Shown here piece after piece: positions 1 to 37,699 of a stretch of DNA of 37,699 nucleotides. This stretch comes from a virus. Each line of letters opens with the position of its first letter. Position 1 is the first letter of the stretch. The notes below the pieces were generated by a model, which saw only the letters and a program-made list of their open reading frames with translations, had not been told where the DNA came from and did no database searches. A program made the translations under genes and the position numbers. The DNA lies in IMG/VR virus record IMGVR_UViG_3300028429_000330. One strand, 5' to 3'.

Positions 1-141
1 GCCCGACGCCGCAGTTCGTGGGCACGCCTGACGCAATCACGTTCGCTTCAGGCATTCCGGCGTACTTCCGTATTCGTTGATTCCGGTGATTACCATGCTA
101 GAGGCTTTCGCGCTCGCGCTCACTATTGAGGTGGGCGCCAC
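1..141. repeat. Terminal overlap, identical to 37559-37699 (circular-contig closure; unit length 37,558 bp)
   Basis: Read base by base. Both copies run gcccgacgccgcagttcgtg ... cactattgaggtgggcgccac. Copy 1 holds the last 80 nt (stop TGA 78-80) of the CDS that starts at 36307, plus 61 nt downstream. Confidence 0.95.
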
Positions 142-5278: not shown

Positions 5279-5793
5279 GCGCGGCGGAACTCCACCACCC
5301 AAACCCACGGGTTTGCGCGCCAAGAGTCGGCGCCGTTCAGGTCGCACCACAGGTGTTCGTACCAAACGCGCGGGTCTTCGCCGCGTGCCATGTTGACGAA
5401 AGGGCAACCTTCGGCCATCGCGTCGCCGCGCGTGATGTCTTGCAGCCGCTCGACGCGGACGCCGGTTATCACTAGCGTGATGCGGCTGGCGGCGCGCGGC
5501 ATGAAGATCGACGGGCGCCACTTCAGCGGGCCGTACTCGGCTTTGTCTGGTAGTTGGTCGGTCGCGCGATACCACAGCGCGTCGTCGTAGGGGTTGCATG
5601 CCCACGTCTCGCGCACCCAAAGCCTGTCGCCGGGCGCGCCGAAGGGGCAGCGCGACGGCCCACCATCAGCAGGGGCCACAAGGTCAAGGCGATAGTCGCC
5701 GCCGGGCTTCAGCACGCGCCGCGTCTGCGTCTTGGTCCCTGCCAGCAGGGCGCGCACCATCGGCGCGCTGAACAGGATGCCGCGCTCTTTCAT
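5275..5793 (-). CDS. ASCH-like phage protein (172 aa)
   Basis: ATG 5793, an ATGA overlap with the methyltransferase stop. N-terminus ILFSAPMVRALLAGTKTQTRRV is typical of ASCH-type proteins found next to phage methyltransferases (recollection). Only the last 172 codons of ORF 5275..7542 are used. Confidence 0.6.
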   Translation of the reverse strand: MKERGILFSAPMVRALLAGTKTQTRRVLKPGGDYRLDLVAPADGGPSRCPFGAPGDRLWVRETWACNPYDDALWYRATDQLPDKAEYGPLKWRPSIFMPRAASRITLVITGVRVERLQDITRGDAMAEGCPFVNMARGEDPRVWYEHLWCDLNGADSWRANPWVWVVEFRRA

Positions 5794-7334
5794 GCCGCCA
5801 CCATGCCGGCATCGATCGCCGCCTCGTGCGCAAAGTTCGCCCGCACCAGCGCCGCAGCGATCGGCGGGCAGACGCTGTTGCCGCACATGCGCACCTGCGC
5901 GTGCTTGGGCAGCGGGCGGCCGTTGTGCTGGAACTCGATCAAGTAGCTGTCGGGGAAGCCCTGCGCCCGGTACAGCTCCCGAGGCTGCAGCATGCGCATG
6001 CCGATGTCGGCGATGGCGTACTGCTCGCCGGCCACGGTGACCAGGCCAAAGCGGTCGCGCGTGGTGACCGTGTGCATCGGCTCGGTCAGCCGTGGATCCT
6101 GGTCGGTGCCGTAGAACTTCAGCAGCAGCGCGCGGACCTCGGCGAAGTGGGTGCCGTGCGCGGCGATGGTCTGCAACGGCTCGTCCGTGCCGTGGCCCGT
6201 GTTGGTGCCGCGCAGCTTGGTGATCGTACTGGCCACCAGCCCGTGATGGTCCTGCGTGGTGATGGTGTCGGTCGGGCGGTCCGCGGCTACGCCCGGCGTC
6301 TCGTTGCCGCCGTAGTGCTTGGCGAGGAACGCGGCCACCAGGGCGTGCTTCTGGCCGCCGGCGACCACGGTGCCGAGCGGCTTGTCGATGCCAGGCACGC
6401 GCGGCGCCTGGCCCTCGCGCTCGCCGTAGCCGGTCTGCACAAGCGTCGGCGCGCAAAGGGCCAGCTCGCCGCCGTTGGCGGTGGTCAGCGTGCGCACGGG
6501 CTCGTCGATGGGGTGCACGCGCGCATCGCCGGTGTGAGTTAGCGGCACGATGAACGGGTTGCCGCTGTTCACCACGTACTTCATCACCCCGCGCGCGATC
6601 CGGCGCAGCGTGTTCTCGGCCAGCGGCCGGCTGCGCTTGAAGATCGACGGGCACGGCAGCGACCAGTCGATGCACTCGGCCGCGCTGCGGTACGGCAGGC
6701 GGCCGGGTCCGTGCGTGGGCTCCGGCCAAACGACCGGCAGGCCGTCGCAGCGCGCGATGACAAAGAGGCGCTTGCGGGTCGTCGGAGCGCCGTAATCGCA
6801 GGCGCGCAGCTCGCGGTGCTCGACCTTGTAGCCGAATCGCCGCAGCTGGTTCAGCCACAGCGTGAAGGTCTTGCCGCGCCCGCGTGGGCACGGCTTGCCG
6901 TCCTCGGTCAGCGGTCCCCAGTCGGCAAACTCCTCGACGTTCTCCAGCATGATCACGCGAGGCCGCACGCGCTTGGCCCAGCGGATCACCACCCAGGCCA
7001 GCCCGCGCACTCGAGGTGAACGCGGCGCCCCGCCCTTGGCCTTGCTGTGATGTGTGCAGTCCGGGCTGAACCAGGCAAGGCCCACCGGCTGATTGCCCGT
7101 GATCTCGGTCGGCTCCACCTTGAACACCGACTCGCAGTAGTGCACGGTCGACGGATGGTTGACCCGGTGCATGGCGATGGCCTCCGGGTCGTGGTTGATC
7201 GCAATGTCGACCGGGCGGCCGACGGCCTGCTCGATGCCGGTGCTGGCACCGCCGCCGCCGGCAAAGTTGTCGACGATGAGCTCGGCGCGCAGGCCAAGCG
7301 GCAGGGTGAAGGCGTCGCGCTTCACCCCTGGCAC
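5790..7334 (-). CDS. DNA (cytosine-5)-methyltransferase
   Basis: ORF track 514 aa. Motif I DNFAGGGGAS, motif IV WFSPDCTHHS (PC), motif VI IMLENVEEF, motif VIII AQGFPDSY, motif X CGNSVCPPIA. Confidence 0.9.
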   Translation of the reverse strand: MPGVKRDAFTLPLGLRAELIVDNFAGGGGASTGIEQAVGRPVDIAINHDPEAIAMHRVNHPSTVHYCESVFKVEPTEITGNQPVGLAWFSPDCTHHSKAKGGAPRSPRVRGLAWVVIRWAKRVRPRVIMLENVEEFADWGPLTEDGKPCPRGRGKTFTLWLNQLRRFGYKVEHRELRACDYGAPTTRKRLFVIARCDGLPVVWPEPTHGPGRLPYRSAAECIDWSLPCPSIFKRSRPLAENTLRRIARGVMKYVVNSGNPFIVPLTHTGDARVHPIDEPVRTLTTANGGELALCAPTLVQTGYGEREGQAPRVPGIDKPLGTVVAGGQKHALVAAFLAKHYGGNETPGVAADRPTDTITTQDHHGLVASTITKLRGTNTGHGTDEPLQTIAAHGTHFAEVRALLLKFYGTDQDPRLTEPMHTVTTRDRFGLVTVAGEQYAIADIGMRMLQPRELYRAQGFPDSYLIEFQHNGRPLPKHAQVRMCGNSVCPPIAAALVRANFAHEAAIDAGMVAA

Positions 7335-7825: not shown

Positions 7826-8674
7826 TCAATCGGTGCATCCGATGCACTCGATGCCGTCCTCCGCTTCGGCGGCAGCGTGCCCAAAGGCATCGGCTTGCGC
7901 CTCCGTGAAGGCCAGCATCTGTGCGTAACTCGGGCGGTCTTTCCTGAAGGTGCCGCCGTTCTGAATATTCGCGTTCGTGATGCTGCTCTCCTGCTTGGCC
8001 CACCACACCCCGCGCCGCGGGTTCTCGGCAATGAGGCTCATCACAATGGCGCTGTGCTTCAAAAAGCACAGGTCGCAATTGCCGTGCATGGTCGCGCCGT
8101 TCACGTTCGGCAACGCCAGGTCAAACGGGGCGGTCTGCCAGTAGCGGCCCACTTCCTGCCGCGTCACGCCCAGGTCGGCCAGCGGGGCGCGGCGCTCAAT
8201 GCCGCGCGTGCCGCCACTCGGGTCGGCGCGCAGCTTCGCTATGCGCTTCGGCTCGTCAGCCCGCAGGCCCACCAGCACCTCGAATTCCTCGTGCCCCAGG
8301 CTGCGCATGTAGTCCGCGATGCGCAGTATCTTTAGCTCCACCGTGCAGAACCGCGCCACCGGGTTCGGGAGGTAGTTGCGCTTCCGAATCAGCGCCTCGA
8401 ACGGTTCTCCATTCCTGCTGGCGGTGTGGAAGTTCACTTGCCGCCAGCCTTCGCCGAAGTCGCAATACTCCACCCAGGCAATCGGCACGCGCCAGTAGCG
8501 GGCGCAGTCTTCCACAAACCGCAGCGTCTTCTCGTCTTCCTTGCCGGTGTTGGCAAACACCACATGGCAGTCGGGCGGCAGCGTGCCGCCGTGCGCGTCC
8601 AGCAGCAGGCGCAGCATGTAGGCGCTCGTCCTGCCTCCGCTGAAACTCACTACCGTTGGTCCGTCAATCGTCAT
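7826..8674 (-). CDS. PAPS-reductase-family PP-loop protein with C-terminal Cys cluster (DndC/APS-reductase-like)
   Basis: ORF 7826..8704; ATG 8674 preferred (GGAG SD 7 nt upstream). PP-loop VVSFSGGRTSAYM. Cys pairs HGNCDLCF and IECIGC suggest an Fe-S site. Confidence 0.8.
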   Translation of the reverse strand: MTIDGPTVVSFSGGRTSAYMLRLLLDAHGGTLPPDCHVVFANTGKEDEKTLRFVEDCARYWRVPIAWVEYCDFGEGWRQVNFHTASRNGEPFEALIRKRNYLPNPVARFCTVELKILRIADYMRSLGHEEFEVLVGLRADEPKRIAKLRADPSGGTRGIERRAPLADLGVTRQEVGRYWQTAPFDLALPNVNGATMHGNCDLCFLKHSAIVMSLIAENPRRGVWWAKQESSITNANIQNGGTFRKDRPSYAQMLAFTEAQADAFGHAAAEAEDGIECIGCTD

Positions 8675-11379: not shown

Positions 11380-11636
11380 CGCTTGGCCTCCGGCCACCAG
11401 ACGATGCAGTCGTCGAGCTCGCACCAGCGCCAGCTGCTCACGCTCCAGTGGCGCAGGTGGGCGCTGTCCAGGTGGTCGGCCAGGCGGCCGGGGTGGCGCA
11501 GCACGATGACGGCGCGGCCGGCGCCAGCCTGTACGTGGTCGATGTCGGCCTCGAGCTCAGCCAGGCGCATGACGGCCAGCTGCGCCAGCTGCAATCGGCC
11601 GGTGACGGCGGCGGCGGTGCGGGCGGTGGTGGTCAT
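11376..11636 (-). CDS. Hypothetical 86-aa protein
   Basis: ATG 11636 (ATGA overlap) inside ORF 11376..11897. Begins MTTTARTAAAVTGRLQLAQLAVMRLAELEADIDHV... Confidence 0.5.
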   Translation of the reverse strand: MTTTARTAAAVTGRLQLAQLAVMRLAELEADIDHVQAGAGRAVIVLRHPGRLADHLDSAHLRHWSVSSWRWCELDDCIVWWPEAKR

Positions 11637-11881
11637 GTGGTGGGTCTCCCGCCCAGCAGCAGGGTCTGCTGCAGCTCGTGCTCGGCCGCAAGCACCGGCT
11701 GCGCAATCTCCATGGTGTTGAGCCAGCGCACACAAGCGGCGCTCAGCGCGTCGAGCGCGGCGCGTTCTGCCGGGGTCTGCGGGCGCGGCAAGGTGGCGGC
11801 GTAGTGCGTGGCCGCGTCGGCCAGCGCGGTGCCGGCCTGCAGGCTCTGAATCAGCGCGTAGGCGCAGCGCAGGCGGTTCAC
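11633..11881 (-). CDS. Hypothetical 82-aa protein
   Basis: ORF track. ATGA overlaps on both sides. Confidence 0.55.
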   Translation of the reverse strand: MNRLRCAYALIQSLQAGTALADAATHYAATLPRPQTPAERAALDALSAACVRWLNTMEIAQPVLAAEHELQQTLLLGGRPTT

Positions 11882-12123
11882 GACTCACCCCGGCCACAGT
11901 AGAAATCGGCAGAGCCGGAGGGCAGGAAGTCCGGCGCGTCGAGGCAGTGGTGGGCCTCTTCCACGTCGGCGAGCATTGCCTCGATGGTGGTGCCCCGCAT
12001 GCAATTGGCCGCGTTGATGGCGCGGAAGTAGCTCTGCAGGTCGACGGGCTGGCCGCTGTAGGCGGCCATGTCCCGAATGATCGGGACGCGGTAGGAGAAG
12101 AGGGGAGAGCGTTGCACGTCCAA
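11878..12123 (-). CDS. Hypothetical protein, first gene of the early-left operon
   Basis: ORF track (TTG 12123). GTG 12117 is more likely, with GGAG 6 nt upstream. About 20 nt downstream of the predicted PL-like promoter. Confidence 0.55.
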   Translation of the reverse strand: MDVQRSPLFSYRVPIIRDMAAYSGQPVDLQSYFRAINAANCMRGTTIEAMLADVEEAHHCLDAPDFLPSGSADFYCGRGES

Positions 12124-12144
12124 CTCCGTCAGAAGACGGAGCGG

Positions 12145-12173
12145 ACGTTACCTACAGGTTAATCCTGTGTCAA
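12145..12173 (-). promoter_or_regulatory. Leftward early promoter (lambda PL analogue): -35 TTGACA, 17-bp spacer, -10 TAACGT
   Basis: Minus strand reads tttacctacgggtaTTGACAcaggattaacctgtaggTAACGTccgc. The -35 is at 12173-12168 and the -10 at 12150-12145. Both operator copies overlap it. Confidence 0.6.
12149..12160. promoter_or_regulatory. Operator-like site OL-a, TACCTACAGGTT (one mismatch to TACC-N4-GGTA)
   Basis: Lies in the spacer and -10 of the PL-like promoter. Shares its core with the sites at 12174, 13612 and 13662. Confidence 0.5.
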
Positions 12174-12185
12174 TACCCGTAGGTA
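12174..12185. promoter_or_regulatory. Operator-like site OL-b, TACCCGTAGGTA (TACC-N4-GGTA)
   Basis: Abuts the -35 hexamer and lies 5 nt from the stop codon of 12190..12900. Confidence 0.55.
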
Positions 12186-12189
12186 AATG

Positions 12190-12900
12190 TCAGGCGACCA
12201 GCCGGTCTACCAGCTCTTCGGGCAGGTAAACCCACACGCCGTAGTTGCGGTCCTTGCCGCGCACCTCGGCCGGGGCTGTGAGCTCGGGGGTGCCGCTGGA
12301 GACATTGAAGTGCGCGCACACCGCACCGGCGTAGCGCTTGGCTATCTCGCGCGGCAGGTAGCCCACCAGGCGGCCGGCCAGCTCAACGCGCACCGCGTTC
12401 TTGTCGTGCGCGTTGGTGGGCTCGGGCCGCAGCGTTGCGGTGAGCAGGCGCGGCGTGTTGAAAGACGCGTGGATCTCGGCAATCGGGCGCAGCGCGTCCT
12501 GGTAGTTGGACTCGCCCACCACCTCCAGCTCGTCGAGCCCGTCGGTGTGGGTGTCGTTGCTCAGGCTGCGCTTCACGTCTTCGGTGATCAGGTCGTGGCC
12601 GCAGTGCTTGCACTTGAAGGCATCGCGCAGCACCCACTCCGCACACGCGGGGCACTTGCGGTGCGTGGCTTCGGTGATTACGGGCTCGGCCGGCCTGGCG
12701 CTGGCCGCAGCGGCCGCCGCGGCCAACTGCGCGGCCTGCTGCTGGGTGCGCAGGTTGGGCAGCACCAGCACCAGCAGAATGCCAATGAGCGGCGAGAGCA
12801 GCACGCTCAACACAAACCAGCCAAAGCCGCTGCGCCCGCGGCTGCTGGCGGCCACACCGGCCACCACCGCGAACATGAACCACAGGAAGACGATCTCCAT
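12190..12900 (-). CDS. Membrane-anchored zinc-ribbon + HIRAN-domain protein, co-transcribed with the repressor (candidate exclusion/defence factor)
   Basis: ORF track 236 aa. Two N-terminal TM helices; CPAC-x10-CKHC zinc ribbon. C-terminal HIRAN hallmarks VVGESNYQ, LRPEPTNAHDKNAVRV, GRLVGYLPREIA. Starts 12 nt after the repressor stop, with GAGGGGG SD. Confidence 0.75.
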   Translation of the reverse strand: MEIVFLWFMFAVVAGVAASSRGRSGFGWFVLSVLLSPLIGILLVLVLPNLRTQQQAAQLAAAAAAASARPAEPVITEATHRKCPACAEWVLRDAFKCKHCGHDLITEDVKRSLSNDTHTDGLDELEVVGESNYQDALRPIAEIHASFNTPRLLTATLRPEPTNAHDKNAVRVELAGRLVGYLPREIAKRYAGAVCAHFNVSSGTPELTAPAEVRGKDRNYGVWVYLPEELVDRLVA

Positions 12901-12912
12901 GCGCGCACCCCC

Positions 12913-13590
12913 TCAGATGCTGCGATACAGACTCGCCTTCACGATACCGCCGACGTAGTGCATCAGCTCGATCTCGGACTCTTCGAGCGTGATGGGCGGG
13001 TGGTTCTCGTTGACAGAACGCAACTCCACCAGGCCGTTTCGCCTATTGGACAACATCTTGACCATGCTGCGGCCGTCGCGCGTCTTGACCAGGACCTCGT
13101 CGCCGGGCTCCACCGCTGAGTTGGGCTCCACGATCACGAACTCGCCGGGCCGGATGCGCGGCCGCATGCTGTCGCCCTTCACGCGCAGCGCGTAGGCGTT
13201 GCGGTCCCGCGTGGGGTAGCGGATCAGGCCATCGCCAAAGCCGGGCGGGTGCTGCAATTCGTCCCAGTAGCCGTCGTCGCCCATCTGAGCGGTGCCCACC
13301 ACCGGAATGTCGCGTAGCCACGAGTCGGTGTACTCCCAGGCGGCGGTTGGCTCCTGCACGCGGTGGGTCGGCTGCACGATGTCCAGCACGCCCGGCGGCA
13401 GCCCCAGCCGCTGCTCGATCTCGCGCGCCACCTGCTCGCCAATGCGCTTGCGGTGCACGGTCTCGGTAAACCAGCGCGAGACGTAAGTGGCGTCCTTGCC
13501 CACTTCGCGCGCCAGCGCGGCCTGGTTGCCGTCAAACCGCTCGGCCAGCAGGGCGCGCACGTTGGCCAGCCGGATGTCGTGAATGTCCAT
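12913..13590 (-). CDS. CI-like prophage repressor (N-terminal XRE-type HTH + C-terminal S24/LexA-like peptidase)
   Basis: ATG 13590 (MDIHDIRLANVRALL...) inside ORF 12913..13761. HTH NQAALAREVGKDATYVSRW. S24 catalytic motifs VKGDSMRP and VLVKTRDGRSMVKML. Divergent from the Cro-like gene. Confidence 0.85.
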   Translation of the reverse strand: MDIHDIRLANVRALLAERFDGNQAALAREVGKDATYVSRWFTETVHRKRIGEQVAREIEQRLGLPPGVLDIVQPTHRVQEPTAAWEYTDSWLRDIPVVGTAQMGDDGYWDELQHPPGFGDGLIRYPTRDRNAYALRVKGDSMRPRIRPGEFVIVEPNSAVEPGDEVLVKTRDGRSMVKMLSNRRNGLVELRSVNENHPPITLEESEIELMHYVGGIVKASLYRSI

Positions 13591-13611
13591 CTCCGGATTG
13601 CATCCCCTCAT

Positions 13612-13623
13612 TACCATTGGGTA
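13612..13623. promoter_or_regulatory. Operator-like site OR-a, TACCATTGGGTA (TACC-N4-GGTA)
   Basis: In the 97-bp divergent region between the repressor and Cro-like genes. Extended form TTACCATTGGGTAA is a palindrome. Confidence 0.6.
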
Positions 13624-13625
13624 AA

Positions 13626-13641
13626 TTGCCCCATGGGGTAA
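13626..13641. promoter_or_regulatory. Variant palindrome OR-b, TTGCCCCATGGGGTAA
   Basis: Near-perfect 16-bp palindrome with similar outer bases but a 2-bp longer core. Assignment to the same repressor is uncertain. Confidence 0.35.
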
Positions 13642-13661
13642 CGATGGACTTGCGTGGCCTT

Positions 13662-13673
13662 TACCTATGGGTA
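13662..13673. promoter_or_regulatory. Operator-like site OR-c, TACCTATGGGTA (TACC-N4-GGTA)
   Basis: 15 nt upstream of the Cro-like ATG. Overlaps a possible rightward promoter (TTGCGT 13650-13655 / TATACC 13672-13677). Confidence 0.6.
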
Positions 13674-13687
13674 TACCATGCGGGGTC

Positions 13688-13945
13688 ATGACGCTCCGTG
13701 AATACCTGAAATCGCTGCCCGACACCGCTGCCCGCGAGGCCTTTGCGCTTCGGTGTGGCACCTCGCTCGGTTACCTGCGGCTCGTGAGCTACGGCCACAA
13801 GACCGCGTCCGAGTCCTTGGCCCTTCGGGTGCAGGCCGAATCCGGCAATGCGGTGCAGGCGGCGCAGCTGCTGCCGAGCGTCGACTTTTCCTTCGTTGAC
13901 CGGCTGCAGGGCGCTGACAGCGCGGCTGCCACCGGGGCCGAGTAA
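13688..13945 (+). CDS. Cro/YdaS-like HTH regulator
   Basis: ATG 13688 (MTLREYLKSL...) inside ORF 13667..13945. The pattern ..FALRCGTSLGYLRLVSYGHKTAS..LALRV...SGN.V resembles YdaS/Cro-family proteins. Divergent from the repressor. Confidence 0.65.
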   Translation: MTLREYLKSLPDTAAREAFALRCGTSLGYLRLVSYGHKTASESLALRVQAESGNAVQAAQLLPSVDFSFVDRLQGADSAAATGAE

Positions 13946-13957
13946 AGGGCCATCGCA

Positions 13958-14206
13958 GTGGCACTCGAGAAGAAAGACACCAAGATCTACCTGGACCCGT
14001 CCGTGCACGCGGTCTTTGCCGAGATCGCGCAGGCGCGCGGCCTTACCCTGTCGCAGCTGGCCAGCTCGGTCGTGCAGCGCTATGTGGTTGATCAAGCCCA
14101 TGCCGCCACTGTGATCGCAGACGCCGCCAAGCGTGCGGGAATCGACCGGGTTGCAGCAGGAACTGCGTGGGAAAGTGCCGGAATGGCCGGGAGCGCGCAG
14201 GAATGA
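13958..14206 (+). CDS. Small possible ribbon-helix-helix protein (82 aa)
   Basis: ORF track (GTG 13958). KKDTKIYLDPSVHAVFAEIAQARGLTLSQLASSVVQRYV looks like a strand-helix-helix. The RHH call is tentative. Confidence 0.5.
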   Translation: MALEKKDTKIYLDPSVHAVFAEIAQARGLTLSQLASSVVQRYVVDQAHAATVIADAAKRAGIDRVAAGTAWESAGMAGSAQE

Positions 14207-14505
14207 CGCGCCTCGGCCGCCCTTCCGGCTCCCTCGGCGAGTTCGGCGCCCGCGCGCTGGAGCTGGCCGCCGCCCGCCCCATCAGCTACCGCGACCTGCA
14301 CCTCGAGCTCGGCATGTCGCGCGAGGTGGCCAGCTACACGCTGCGCAACCTGCTCGCCGCCGGTCATGTGGAAGAGGTCAGCCGTGCGCAGGTGCCCGGC
14401 GCCCGCAAGCCGGTGCCGGTGGTGCGCGCCAAGCCGCCCGCCACCGTGGAAGACAAGCTCGCCGCACTCATGGCCTGGCCGCGCAGCACCGGCGTCCCTG
14501 CCTAG
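14203..14505 (+). CDS. Winged-helix (MarR-like) DNA-binding protein, 100 aa
   Basis: ATG 14203 (ATGA overlap with the upstream stop) inside ORF 14167..14505. Contains ISYRDLHLELGMSREVASYTLRNLLAAGHVEEV. Confidence 0.55.
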   Translation: MTRLGRPSGSLGEFGARALELAAARPISYRDLHLELGMSREVASYTLRNLLAAGHVEEVSRAQVPGARKPVPVVRAKPPATVEDKLAALMAWPRSTGVPA

Positions 14506-36306: not shown

Positions 36307-37638
36307 ATGAGCACTCTGAGCCAGTTCGCCGGCGGCGCCGGCATTCCAATCGGCGGCGTGCTGCCTTACCTGCCGGCCGGTGCCGGCGTTGCCTCGCAAT
36401 TGGTGATGGGCGGTCAGGAATACTTGCGCGCCGGCCTCCCGCTCGTGCCCTACAGCGCCAACTACGCGGCCGCGGTCGCGGTCAACCCGCTGATAGCCCG
36501 CTTTGGTCGGCTGCTCGACTTGGGCTTGGGAAGCAATGGAACCACTCCAACGTATCGCCTTATCTGGGACGGTACGCGCTACCAGTTATTTGAGCTGCAA
36601 TTTAGCGCCGGCGAACTGCAAACGGTCCGCAACAGCACAAACCTGAGCACATGGTCGGCCGCCCAGAACGTCCTTGCGCTAGGTTCTGACAACTATGTTC
36701 ACGGGAGTATCGTGGGCTACGGCGGTGGGTGGGCGGGCGTCTTCCAGGATGGCCTTCGCTGGCGCCTTGTAACCGGCACAGACGGCGGCGGCTCCCAGCG
36801 GACGGCGCTCAGCGCCAGCACCAGCTTCAGTCCTCAGCCTAGCAACATCGAGTTTGACGGCACCACCGGCGCCGTCCTTTTCACGGACGGCACGACGCAG
36901 GTAGCTCGGCGCGTGGCGGCCAGCCCGGACGGTGTATGGACAGCCAGCGCCCGCACCGGCGCGACAGTGAACAGCGACAGCAGTCTCGCCGGCAGCGGCA
37001 CCGCTTGGGTAGCCATAGCCCGTCAAAGCGCAGTCACTATTCGCAGTTCGACTGACGCAATCAACTGGACGGCGCGAACGCTGACTGTGCCGGCGAATTT
37101 AAGCCTGTCCAGCCCGCGCGGCACTAATCTTGTGTGGACCGGCTCAACGTTTCTTGCGGCTTTCATGGACAGCGCGACGTCGCAAATCTGGACCGCGCGC
37201 AGCACGGACGGCGTGACCTGGACGCTTGATGCGCCAGTGCCGGGGCTTATCGGTGGCGTTGGCGCTGGATCTACAGACATGTGCATCTGTACCGACCGCG
37301 CCGGTCGCGTTGCGCTGGCTGTTGGATTTGACAACCAGACATCAAGCATTGCCTACAGCACCGACAGCGGTCTTAATTGGAGCATGGCCCGGCTTCCTGG
37401 TGTGGTCACGCTGCGCGGCGTCACCATCCCTAATAACCCCGTGCCGTGCGGCCAGATGAACTTTGCAAACGGCGAGCTGATCCTCAACCGGGTCAACTTT
37501 ACCGGCAGTGGCTTTGGTCGCCCCACGCTGGTCGGCGCAACCGTCTCGCAACTTGCCAGCCCGACGCCGCAGTTCGTGGGCACGCCTGACGCAATCACGT
37601 TCGCTTCAGGCATTCCGGCGTACTTCCGTATTCGTTGA
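36307..37638 (+). CDS. Receptor-binding tail protein with BNR/Asp-box-like repeats (sialidase-type propeller-like)
   Basis: ORF track 443 aa. Asp-box-like motifs SSTDAINWT, STDGVTWT, STDSGLNWS. Its last 80 nt lie in the terminal overlap. Confidence 0.65.
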   Translation: MSTLSQFAGGAGIPIGGVLPYLPAGAGVASQLVMGGQEYLRAGLPLVPYSANYAAAVAVNPLIARFGRLLDLGLGSNGTTPTYRLIWDGTRYQLFELQFSAGELQTVRNSTNLSTWSAAQNVLALGSDNYVHGSIVGYGGGWAGVFQDGLRWRLVTGTDGGGSQRTALSASTSFSPQPSNIEFDGTTGAVLFTDGTTQVARRVAASPDGVWTASARTGATVNSDSSLAGSGTAWVAIARQSAVTIRSSTDAINWTARTLTVPANLSLSSPRGTNLVWTGSTFLAAFMDSATSQIWTARSTDGVTWTLDAPVPGLIGGVGAGSTDMCICTDRAGRVALAVGFDNQTSSIAYSTDSGLNWSMARLPGVVTLRGVTIPNNPVPCGQMNFANGELILNRVNFTGSGFGRPTLVGATVSQLASPTPQFVGTPDAITFASGIPAYFRIR

Positions 37639-37699
37639 TTCCGGTGATTACCATGCTAGAGGCTTTCGCGCTCGCGCTCACTATTGAGGTGGGCGCCAC
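37559..37699. repeat. Terminal overlap, second copy (identical to 1-141)
   Basis: See the 1..141 feature. Confidence 0.95.

Follow-up and report, generated by a model that had tools for sequence, protein, structure and literature searches.

The phage genome in IMG/VR virus record IMGVR_UViG_3300028429_000330 (37,699 nt; this whole stretch is called the window below) carries, directly after its CI-like repressor gene, a gene for a 236-residue protein with two predicted N-terminal transmembrane (TM) helices, a zinc ribbon and a C-terminal HIRAN domain. The gene stands in a position comparable to that of rexAB in phage lambda. With confidence slightly short of even, we propose that it encodes an inner-membrane protein expressed in the lysogen, the cytoplasmic HIRAN head of which would act on DNA 3' ends and lead to exclusion or abortive infection. 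Within this reading, defence against incoming DNA is the most speculative and least certain step. The elements of the repressor region are as follows.

12190..12900, minus strand: gene of the 236-residue 2TM, zinc-ribbon and HIRAN protein, from the open reading frame (ORF) list and the sequence; its stop codon is at 12190-12192.
12913..13590, minus strand: CI-like repressor gene (helix-turn-helix, HTH, and S24 peptidase), upstream of the HIRAN gene and in the same predicted transcription unit, from Pfam and PHROG.
12914-12908, minus strand: Shine-Dalgarno (SD) sequence GAGGGGG in front of the HIRAN gene, sharing bases with the cI stop codon, from the sequence.
12145..12186, minus strand: leftward operator/promoter block, with operators at 12173-12186 and 12148-12161, a -35 hexamer TTGACA at 12173-12168 and a -10 hexamer TAACGT at 12150-12145; operators from palindrome statistics, hexamers read by eye.
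13611..13674: rightward/maintenance operators, clustered in the interval from cI to the cro-like gene, at 13611-13624, 13626-13641 (a variant) and 13661-13674, from palindrome statistics.
13688..13945, plus strand: divergent cro-like gene of 85 residues, as called in the metagenome record.
12116..12148, minus strand: strong GC-rich hairpin of 33 nt, ACGUCCGCUCCGUC-UUCU-GACGGAGUUGGACGU, without a U tract, from RNA folding.

A preliminary description of this region, made from the letters alone, had pointed to the ORF and several motifs in it, to a 12-nt gap after an HTH and S24 repressor gene and to a separate GAGGGGG SD, and all of these were recovered from the ORF list and the sequence. Exactly 12 nt (12901-12912) separate the cI TGA (12915-12913) from the ATG of the HIRAN gene (12900), and no terminator-like site was found between the two genes. 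The CI-like protein matches Peptidase_S24 with 68 bits, HTH_3 weakly, and PHROG 4 “transcriptional repressor” at 9.5e-31. For the divergent cro-like gene, a longer ORF from 13667 matches PHROG 35, also “transcriptional repressor”, at 5e-6.

The repressor–HIRAN pair is bracketed by all four copies of the palindrome TTACCNNNNGGTAA (14 bp, at most one mismatch) present in the genome; 0.08 copies are expected in 37.7 kb, and none of 100 shuffles reached four. Two of them (12148-12161 and 12173-12186) lie just past the HIRAN gene, the nearer one starting 3 nt after the stop codon, which corrects the distance of 5 nt given previously. A first operator pattern with a long spacer gave no match, the correct unit being the 14-bp palindrome. 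Concerning the leftward block described before, its operators are borne out by these statistics, while its promoter, read as TTGACA-N17-TAACGT and flanked by the two operators, is not recovered in a consensus promoter scan, which gave no site; the promoter assignments are therefore our own readings of the sequence. In lambda, cI-rexA-rexB lies between the OR and OL/PL blocks and is co-transcribed with the repressor in the lysogen. Since operator copies stand on both sides, the cI–HIRAN pair thus makes up one unit between OR-like and OL-like clusters, as cI-rexA-rexB does, and the suggested “rexAB slot” between cI and an operator-controlled leftward promoter agrees with the map. A search of IMG/VR for relatives of the window CI, meant to reveal the slot contents in sister phages, returned one locus, 38% identical and without an adjacent gene.

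Directly past the predicted leftward promoter, the hairpin at 12116-12148 takes in the GGAG as well as the first bases of the GTG (12117) with which the first early-left gene starts. Together with the operator hairpin it gives the minus-strand segment 12105-12195 a folding energy of -40.1 kcal/mol (z = -5.3). This hairpin may mark where the immunity transcript ends (as its 3' end or a terminator), control translation or be a nut-like element; Rfam gave no match on 11500-14500.

The protein itself is divided into three parts.

12760..12894, minus strand: N-terminal membrane hairpin, composed of helix 1 (about residues 3-20), a conserved SSRGRSG loop and helix 2 (about residues 25-47), from the model and conservation.
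12589..12660, minus strand: zinc ribbon, residues 81-104 (C83, C86, C97, C100), from conserved cysteines, profiles below cut-off and the model.
12193..12537, minus strand: HIRAN domain, about residues 122-236, from Pfam, a PDB profile search and Foldseek.

By sequence and by predicted structure, the C-terminal domain is a HIRAN domain, as had been supposed from its motifs VVGESNYQ, LRPEPTNAHDKNAVRV and GRLVGYLPREIA. Pfam HIRAN (PF08797, cut-off 24.7 bits) scores 32.5 bits over residues 156-196 and is also found in the precomputed Pfam matches for the identical protein. The full-length AlphaFold model (88-sequence alignment; predicted local distance difference test, pLDDT, 95) contains helices at 2-20 and 25-46, a linker helix at 50-67, a ribbon of short strands at 80-91 and an alpha/beta domain at 122-235, and the domain-only model has a pLDDT of 93.6. 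When both models were compared with the PDB by Foldseek, clear matches were restricted to the HIRAN domain of HLTF and the bacterial HIRAN protein lp_0118, which have beta-barrel-like folds (4S0N and 3K2Y, respectively); chains of these two made up 17 of the 18 top matches of the domain-only model (E down to 7e-5, probability 0.98-1.0). A PDB profile search with six full-length relatives also reached HLTF HIRAN (E 6e-5), aligning LQRDPNNPYDKNAIKV..GNQVGHLKKELA with LRPEPTNAHDKNAVRV..GRLVGYLPREIA. The core N-P-x-D-x-N-A-[IV], here NNPYDKNAIKV, corresponds to TNAHDKNAVRV in HLTF, and N163, D166 and A169 are invariant in a 33-sequence alignment. HLTF HIRAN binds 3' single-stranded DNA (ssDNA) ends; in its structures, D94 is in contact with the 3'-OH, and the last base is stacked against Y93. 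D166 is the counterpart of D94 and is kept, Y93 is replaced by H165, and a subfamily signature VVGESxYQ stands in place of the HLTF GLRYY stretch. By analogy with HLTF, the head would bind free 3'-OH DNA ends.

The two other parts are also conserved. In the N-terminus, which contains the hydrophobic helix motifs FLWFMFAVVAGVAA and FGWFVLSVLLSPLIGILLVLVL and is matched by PHROGs 8436 and 9201, the residues R21, G22, R23, S24, G27, W28, P37 and L38 are invariant among the six full-length relatives. The zinc ribbon noted earlier, CPAC-x10-CKHC, is present and its four cysteines are invariant in the same relatives; the profile scores are below the cut-offs (Zn_ribbon_3, PF13248, 22.2 bits against 27; UPF0547, 21.1 against 29), both of which are passed by the relative P0123. 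A kinship of the hairpin to the PLDc_N module of cardiolipin synthases was considered and dropped, as no such Pfam match occurs in the window protein and eight relatives.

The gene belongs to a complete phage. An exact direct repeat of 141 bp at the two ends of the window (1-141 and 37559-37699) is an assembler k-mer overlap. About 37,558 bp long and with 68% GC, the phage genome in the window is circular and complete; it encodes an integrase, an HNH protein, both terminase subunits (small and large), a portal protein and a VapE-like primase. The identical 236-residue protein was called on 22 metagenomic contigs that were examined, two of them JGI contigs of 37,672 bp, where the same genes occur under different coordinate ranges. 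The circular genome with an integrase and the recurrence of the protein therefore indicate a temperate phage found repeatedly across several metagenomes. Its early-left operon includes a C5 DNA methylase gene (5790-7325, minus strand; PF00145, 511 residues) and, by a weak match, a PAPS-reductase-like gene (7826-8674, minus strand), which may serve anti-restriction or DNA-modification functions of the phage.

The proposed mechanism starts from an accessory gene in the immunity region of this phage. Judging from the gene layout, it would share the transcript that starts at the maintenance promoter of cI, and the overlap of its SD with the stop codon of cI suggests translational coupling; the lysogen would therefore make the HIRAN protein continuously. 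Its two N-terminal helices would insert as a hairpin into the inner membrane, leaving the zinc ribbon and HIRAN in the cytoplasm, and the HIRAN head would bind free 3'-OH DNA ends beside the membrane, protecting the lysogen from foreign DNA that enters the cell, above all from superinfecting phages. Two routes may be supposed. In the first (exclusion), the end of the entering genome would be capped or held, blocking completion of entry, circularisation or the priming of replication; in the second, end binding would trigger an abortive response at the membrane, as is thought for AbiP and PdpSau. The HIRAN protein would act alone, without a conserved partner gene.

A total of 50,697 GenBank phage records were searched by tblastn. 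The full-length protein matched none of them at 1e-5; the HIRAN core alone, searched at E <=1, gave leads, among them a pneumococcal match with E 2e-4 over 48 residues. In these pneumococcal phages the gene order is regulator, (ImmA), TM-HIRAN and integrase, and the TM-HIRAN gene lies on the repressor strand. Genes of this type have been named thaL and defined by TM segment(s) plus HIRAN and by location in the lysogeny module beside the repressor (PMC12637031), and the window protein fits this definition on all three points. Like the window protein, the “ThaL-type” pneumococcal proteins combine a membrane hairpin with a C-terminal HIRAN and are encoded on the repressor strand of a lysogeny module. 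They differ in their Gram-positive host, length (304 residues), long basic N-terminal extension, mid-protein position of the hairpin, lack of the zinc ribbon and RGRS loop, and domain order. Common descent of the whole proteins is not borne out, the similarity being confined to the 48-residue HIRAN core, and the two are probably independent fusions.

Staphylococcus aureus phage P954 (L146:2902-3755) encodes a 248-residue HIRAN protein, gp04, without an obvious hydrophobic segment and with no Pfam match in its N-terminal 150 residues. Its gene lies downstream of a cI-like regulator on the same strand and overlaps gp05, a 49-residue ORF lying directly after that regulator. Lytic Xanthomonas and Stenotrophomonas phages have short HIRAN proteins encoded elsewhere, in phage DLP4 within the replication and repair module. 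HIRAN genes occupy, probably by convergence, the lysogeny modules of unrelated temperate phages (pneumococcal and staphylococcal). The preliminary description had known of no characterised defence protein of this design. The exact architecture of RGRS hairpin, zinc ribbon and HIRAN is indeed new, but its theme has precedents in the ThaL-type proteins, P954 gp04 and AbiP/PdpSau, a TM-HIRAN protein in a lysogeny module having been noted already. It is a rather doubtful suggestion that membrane-anchored HIRAN proteins form a convergent single-gene class of prophage immunity; made together with the repressor and placed at the inner membrane, they would recognise the free 3'-OH end of a genome on its way in (or of ssDNA being imported) and stop it.

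The N-terminal half shows moron-like behaviour. By itself it is very common (4,905 representatives at E <=1e-10, mostly of this half), and 55 IMG/VR loci encode 2TM plus zinc-ribbon relatives. In viral contigs, short genes of this kind stand directly after HTH, S24, CI or Mu-type repressor genes; for example, in L024 a CI-like gene ends 9 nt upstream of such a gene on the same strand. In five other contigs (L009, L013, L018, L030 and L048) the gene is immediately upstream of the tape-measure gene (1,000-1,750 residues), with matches at about 6001-6300 (3953-4255 in L009) and a product of about 96 residues in the three that were translated. The exclusion moron gp15 of HK97 has the same position before the tape-measure gene (PMC3594210). 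We conclude that the 2TM plus zinc-ribbon half is a common prophage moron. The ribbon is also found without the RGRS hairpin: at L055:1007-1315 and L057:287-625, the same ribbon, H[RK]KCPxCAE...CKHCG, is joined to a superinfection-immunity domain of the T4 Imm type (PF14373, about 61-62 bits). As judged by these motifs, the zinc ribbon is a module common to different small phage membrane proteins. A conserved variant of about 131 residues (L012, L015-L017, L020, L021, L023, L027-L029) has the order 2TM, zinc ribbon, acidic stretch and a C-terminal third TM helix, and is preceded, depending on the locus, by S24 repressors, DUF7946/DUF7947 or DUF1828 proteins.

The complete architecture has a different distribution. 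A word-indexed search gave five clusters besides the exact protein (38-54% identity), and when 1.84 billion representatives were searched exhaustively with a profile, 23,585 partial relatives were obtained, among which, by reading of the sequences, about 14 clusters (at 50% identity) have the full set of 2TM, ribbon and HIRAN. A genome-collection scan with the HIRAN half revealed no close relative, its best segments being 43-55% identical. The exact architecture is therefore rare, and the family is not restricted to phages, since close homologues with no repressor beside them are also encoded on plasmid-like contigs and on chromosomes. The homologue survey proposed in advance thus has a double outcome: related genes do occur at lysogeny-module positions, while full-length homologues are also encoded on chromosomes and plasmid-like contigs.

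Several observations weigh against the defence reading. Close homologues are found outside prophages, some of them amid housekeeping genes. Another homologue (P0004, L006:1311-3054), which no longer contains the NPxD motif and is not recognised as HIRAN by Pfam, is divergent from a LexA gene, and the position divergent from lexA is often that of SOS-induced membrane proteins. A neighbour survey of 80 genome-collection loci of the HIRAN subfamily gave heterogeneous surroundings with no conserved partner, and a two-gene system was rejected on this ground. GC and GC3 (third codon positions) of the gene equal the phage genome average, so that base composition gave no moron signal and no sign of recent acquisition. 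Template-modelling scores to solved HIRAN structures are 0.38-0.51, with a root-mean-square deviation of about 6 Å, and the domain is therefore a divergent HIRAN member with two long extra helices; given the change of Y93 to H165 and of the RYY stretch to ESNYQ, its ligand may differ from that of HLTF. No PADLOC model matches beyond the HIRAN core, and thaL is presented as a name and definition only (PMC12637031). Finally, the loop between the membrane helices holds on average 2.1 Lys/Arg and almost no acidic residues in 201 relatives; such an Arg-rich loop fits the cytoplasmic side of the membrane, by which the HIRAN domain would be outside the cytoplasm.

This last point concerns the orientation of the two hydrophobic helices, which were called correctly at the outset (helices 2-20 and 25-46 of the model), although their topology is not self-evident, the loop and the relatives with a third helix pointing in opposite directions. 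If the loop is cytoplasmic, the zinc ribbon and HIRAN would be exported and, once in the periplasm, would encounter DNA or else a tail or ejection protein of a phage. We consider this version very unlikely, even though the positive-inside rule speaks for it (in the 201 relatives, the stretch of 15 residues that follows helix 2 has no net charge), and so do the lipoprotein genes adjoining two close homologues. One of these, at L004:5272-5787, encodes an SNase-type nuclease (signal MRRLLALVVAACVAGC) 30 nt downstream of P0003, of which it may be an operon partner or a coincidental neighbour. In contrast, the flank on the HIRAN side is the more positive one in 10 of the 11 third-helix relatives (e.g., RPGRRRS, PPARRKG). 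The 450-residue P0123 continues from 2TM, ribbon and HIRAN to a third helix and a C-terminal VasI (type VI secretion-associated) domain, VasI being taken as periplasmic, and P0006, P0125, P0135 and P0139 end in Pro-rich tails; judging from such extensions beyond the third helix, certain members of the family seem to cross the membrane and to have a periplasmic part. Genomic HIRAN relatives of about 150 residues have a hydrophobic helix at their very start and Arg/Lys just behind it, as an N-out/C-in anchor does, the pneumococcal TM-HIRAN protein is strongly basic on both sides of its hairpin, and four-Cys zinc ribbons and HIRAN are intracellular domain types. Taken together, these data place the HIRAN head in the cytoplasm, and we regard a cytoplasmic location of the ribbon and head as quite likely.

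Two further explanations compete with the defence reading. The protein may be an ordinary bacterial membrane or DNA-metabolism protein, active in the DNA-damage response or in tethering or protecting DNA ends at the membrane, merely carried by the phage and without a part in conflicts among genetic elements. The gene contexts of its homologues are partly of this kind: P0267, nearly identical to the 54%-identical relative P0003, is encoded on chromosomal contigs between PTS-Ntr/P-II/SbtA genes and metX/metW-like genes, P0002 is preceded by a lipoprotein and a large hydrolase-like protein, and the LexA neighbour of P0004, the heterogeneous surroundings and the average composition of the gene agree with a cellular task. 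However, a family so rare and patchy is unlike a housekeeping one, P0003 itself is located on a plasmid-like contig that also encodes resolvases, Rep3 and AbiJ_NTD4, IS110 and ParE are found close to P0121, and viral contigs repeatedly have the N-terminal half at places typical of morons. Moreover, HK97 gp15, an exclusion protein, has non-phage homologues too (PMC3594210), and a purely cellular function seems improbable to us. One can also suggest a lifecycle sensor, which would report DNA ends or imported ssDNA (from damage, transformation or conjugation) to the prophage, and would tune its induction or excision or block incoming homologous DNA by which the prophage could be deleted (chromosomal curing). 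For this speak the reading of 3' ssDNA ends by HIRAN, as established for HLTF, and the placement of the gene in a regulatory unit with an S24 repressor cleavable in the RecA-type manner; in pneumococcus, the lysogeny-module surface protein SzaL sensitises the prophage to the induction of competence, and thaL belongs to the same kind of module (PMC12637031). On the other hand, there is no sign that the host is transformable and no evident partner to pass a signal to CI, and the short 2TM plus zinc-ribbon relatives stand also beside tape-measure genes, which is not a regulatory position; we therefore judge such a sensor unlikely. Our preference remains with the exclusion or abortive-infection reading, at the tentative level stated above.

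If this reading is true, the gene represents a one-gene defence with a sensor that reads DNA ends, and a function would be offered for puzzling lysogeny-module genes of pneumococcal and staphylococcal prophages, including those of clinical strains. To our knowledge, work on HIRAN has so far dealt almost exclusively with fork remodelling in eukaryotes. Should the convergent class also be true, DNA-end reading would be a new sensing principle of bacterial defence, common to prophages of Gram-negative bacteria (this phage) and Gram-positive ones (thaL, P954 gp04). The role of the common 2TM plus zinc-ribbon morons and the interference of prophages with transformation or conjugation at DNA entry become testable questions. 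If the defence reading is false, the protein is one more accessory membrane protein without an assigned role.

Among known systems, HLTF shares with the window protein the HIRAN motif and fold, but combines them with a helicase/RING context instead of a membrane anchor. A HIRAN domain is also present in the candidate defence pair PDC-M03, which consists of HipA and HIRAN (PMC13245101); the partner there is HipA, while here the domain has a membrane anchor, and no HipA family is listed for the genes called in locus L001 (window 2190-22900). PADLOC gave weak matches to PDC-M03B over residues 155-191, i.e., the HIRAN core; as these were accompanied only by chance-level matches of Cas12f and LmuB on the zinc ribbon, membership of any PADLOC system was rejected.

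P22 SieA is an inner-membrane blocker of genome injection (PMC10883804). Like it, HK97 gp15 and T4 Imm, the window protein is a small inner-membrane protein of a phage or prophage, as predicted; these three block genome entry and, unlike the window protein, lack a DNA-binding head. The window protein gave no match to PF14373 (T4 Imm type) at E <=1. Closer in architecture, and in architecture only, are AbiP and PdpSau, each a single protein in which a cytoplasmic domain follows an N-terminal membrane anchor. For AbiP of Lactococcus, a membrane-anchored Abi protein, binding of nucleic acids was demonstrated; PdpSau of S. aureus prophages causes abortive infection, and its cytoplasmic part is positively charged and includes a predicted OB-fold-like region (PMC10127798). 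Their binding domains are OB-like rather than HIRAN, and pdpSau lies beside lysis genes, whereas the window gene lies beside the repressor.

In position, the nearest parallel is lambda RexAB. Both occupy the slot between cI and OL/PL with operators on both sides, co-transcription being deduced here from the layout. RexAB is a pair of sensor and channel, whereas a single polypeptide is present in the window; the two have no sequence relation (no PADLOC Rex model matched at E <=1), and there is no sign of channel activity in the window protein. The concept, however, may be common to both, namely a DNA-related trigger coupled to a membrane component. For the functional logic supposed here, characterised analogues exist.

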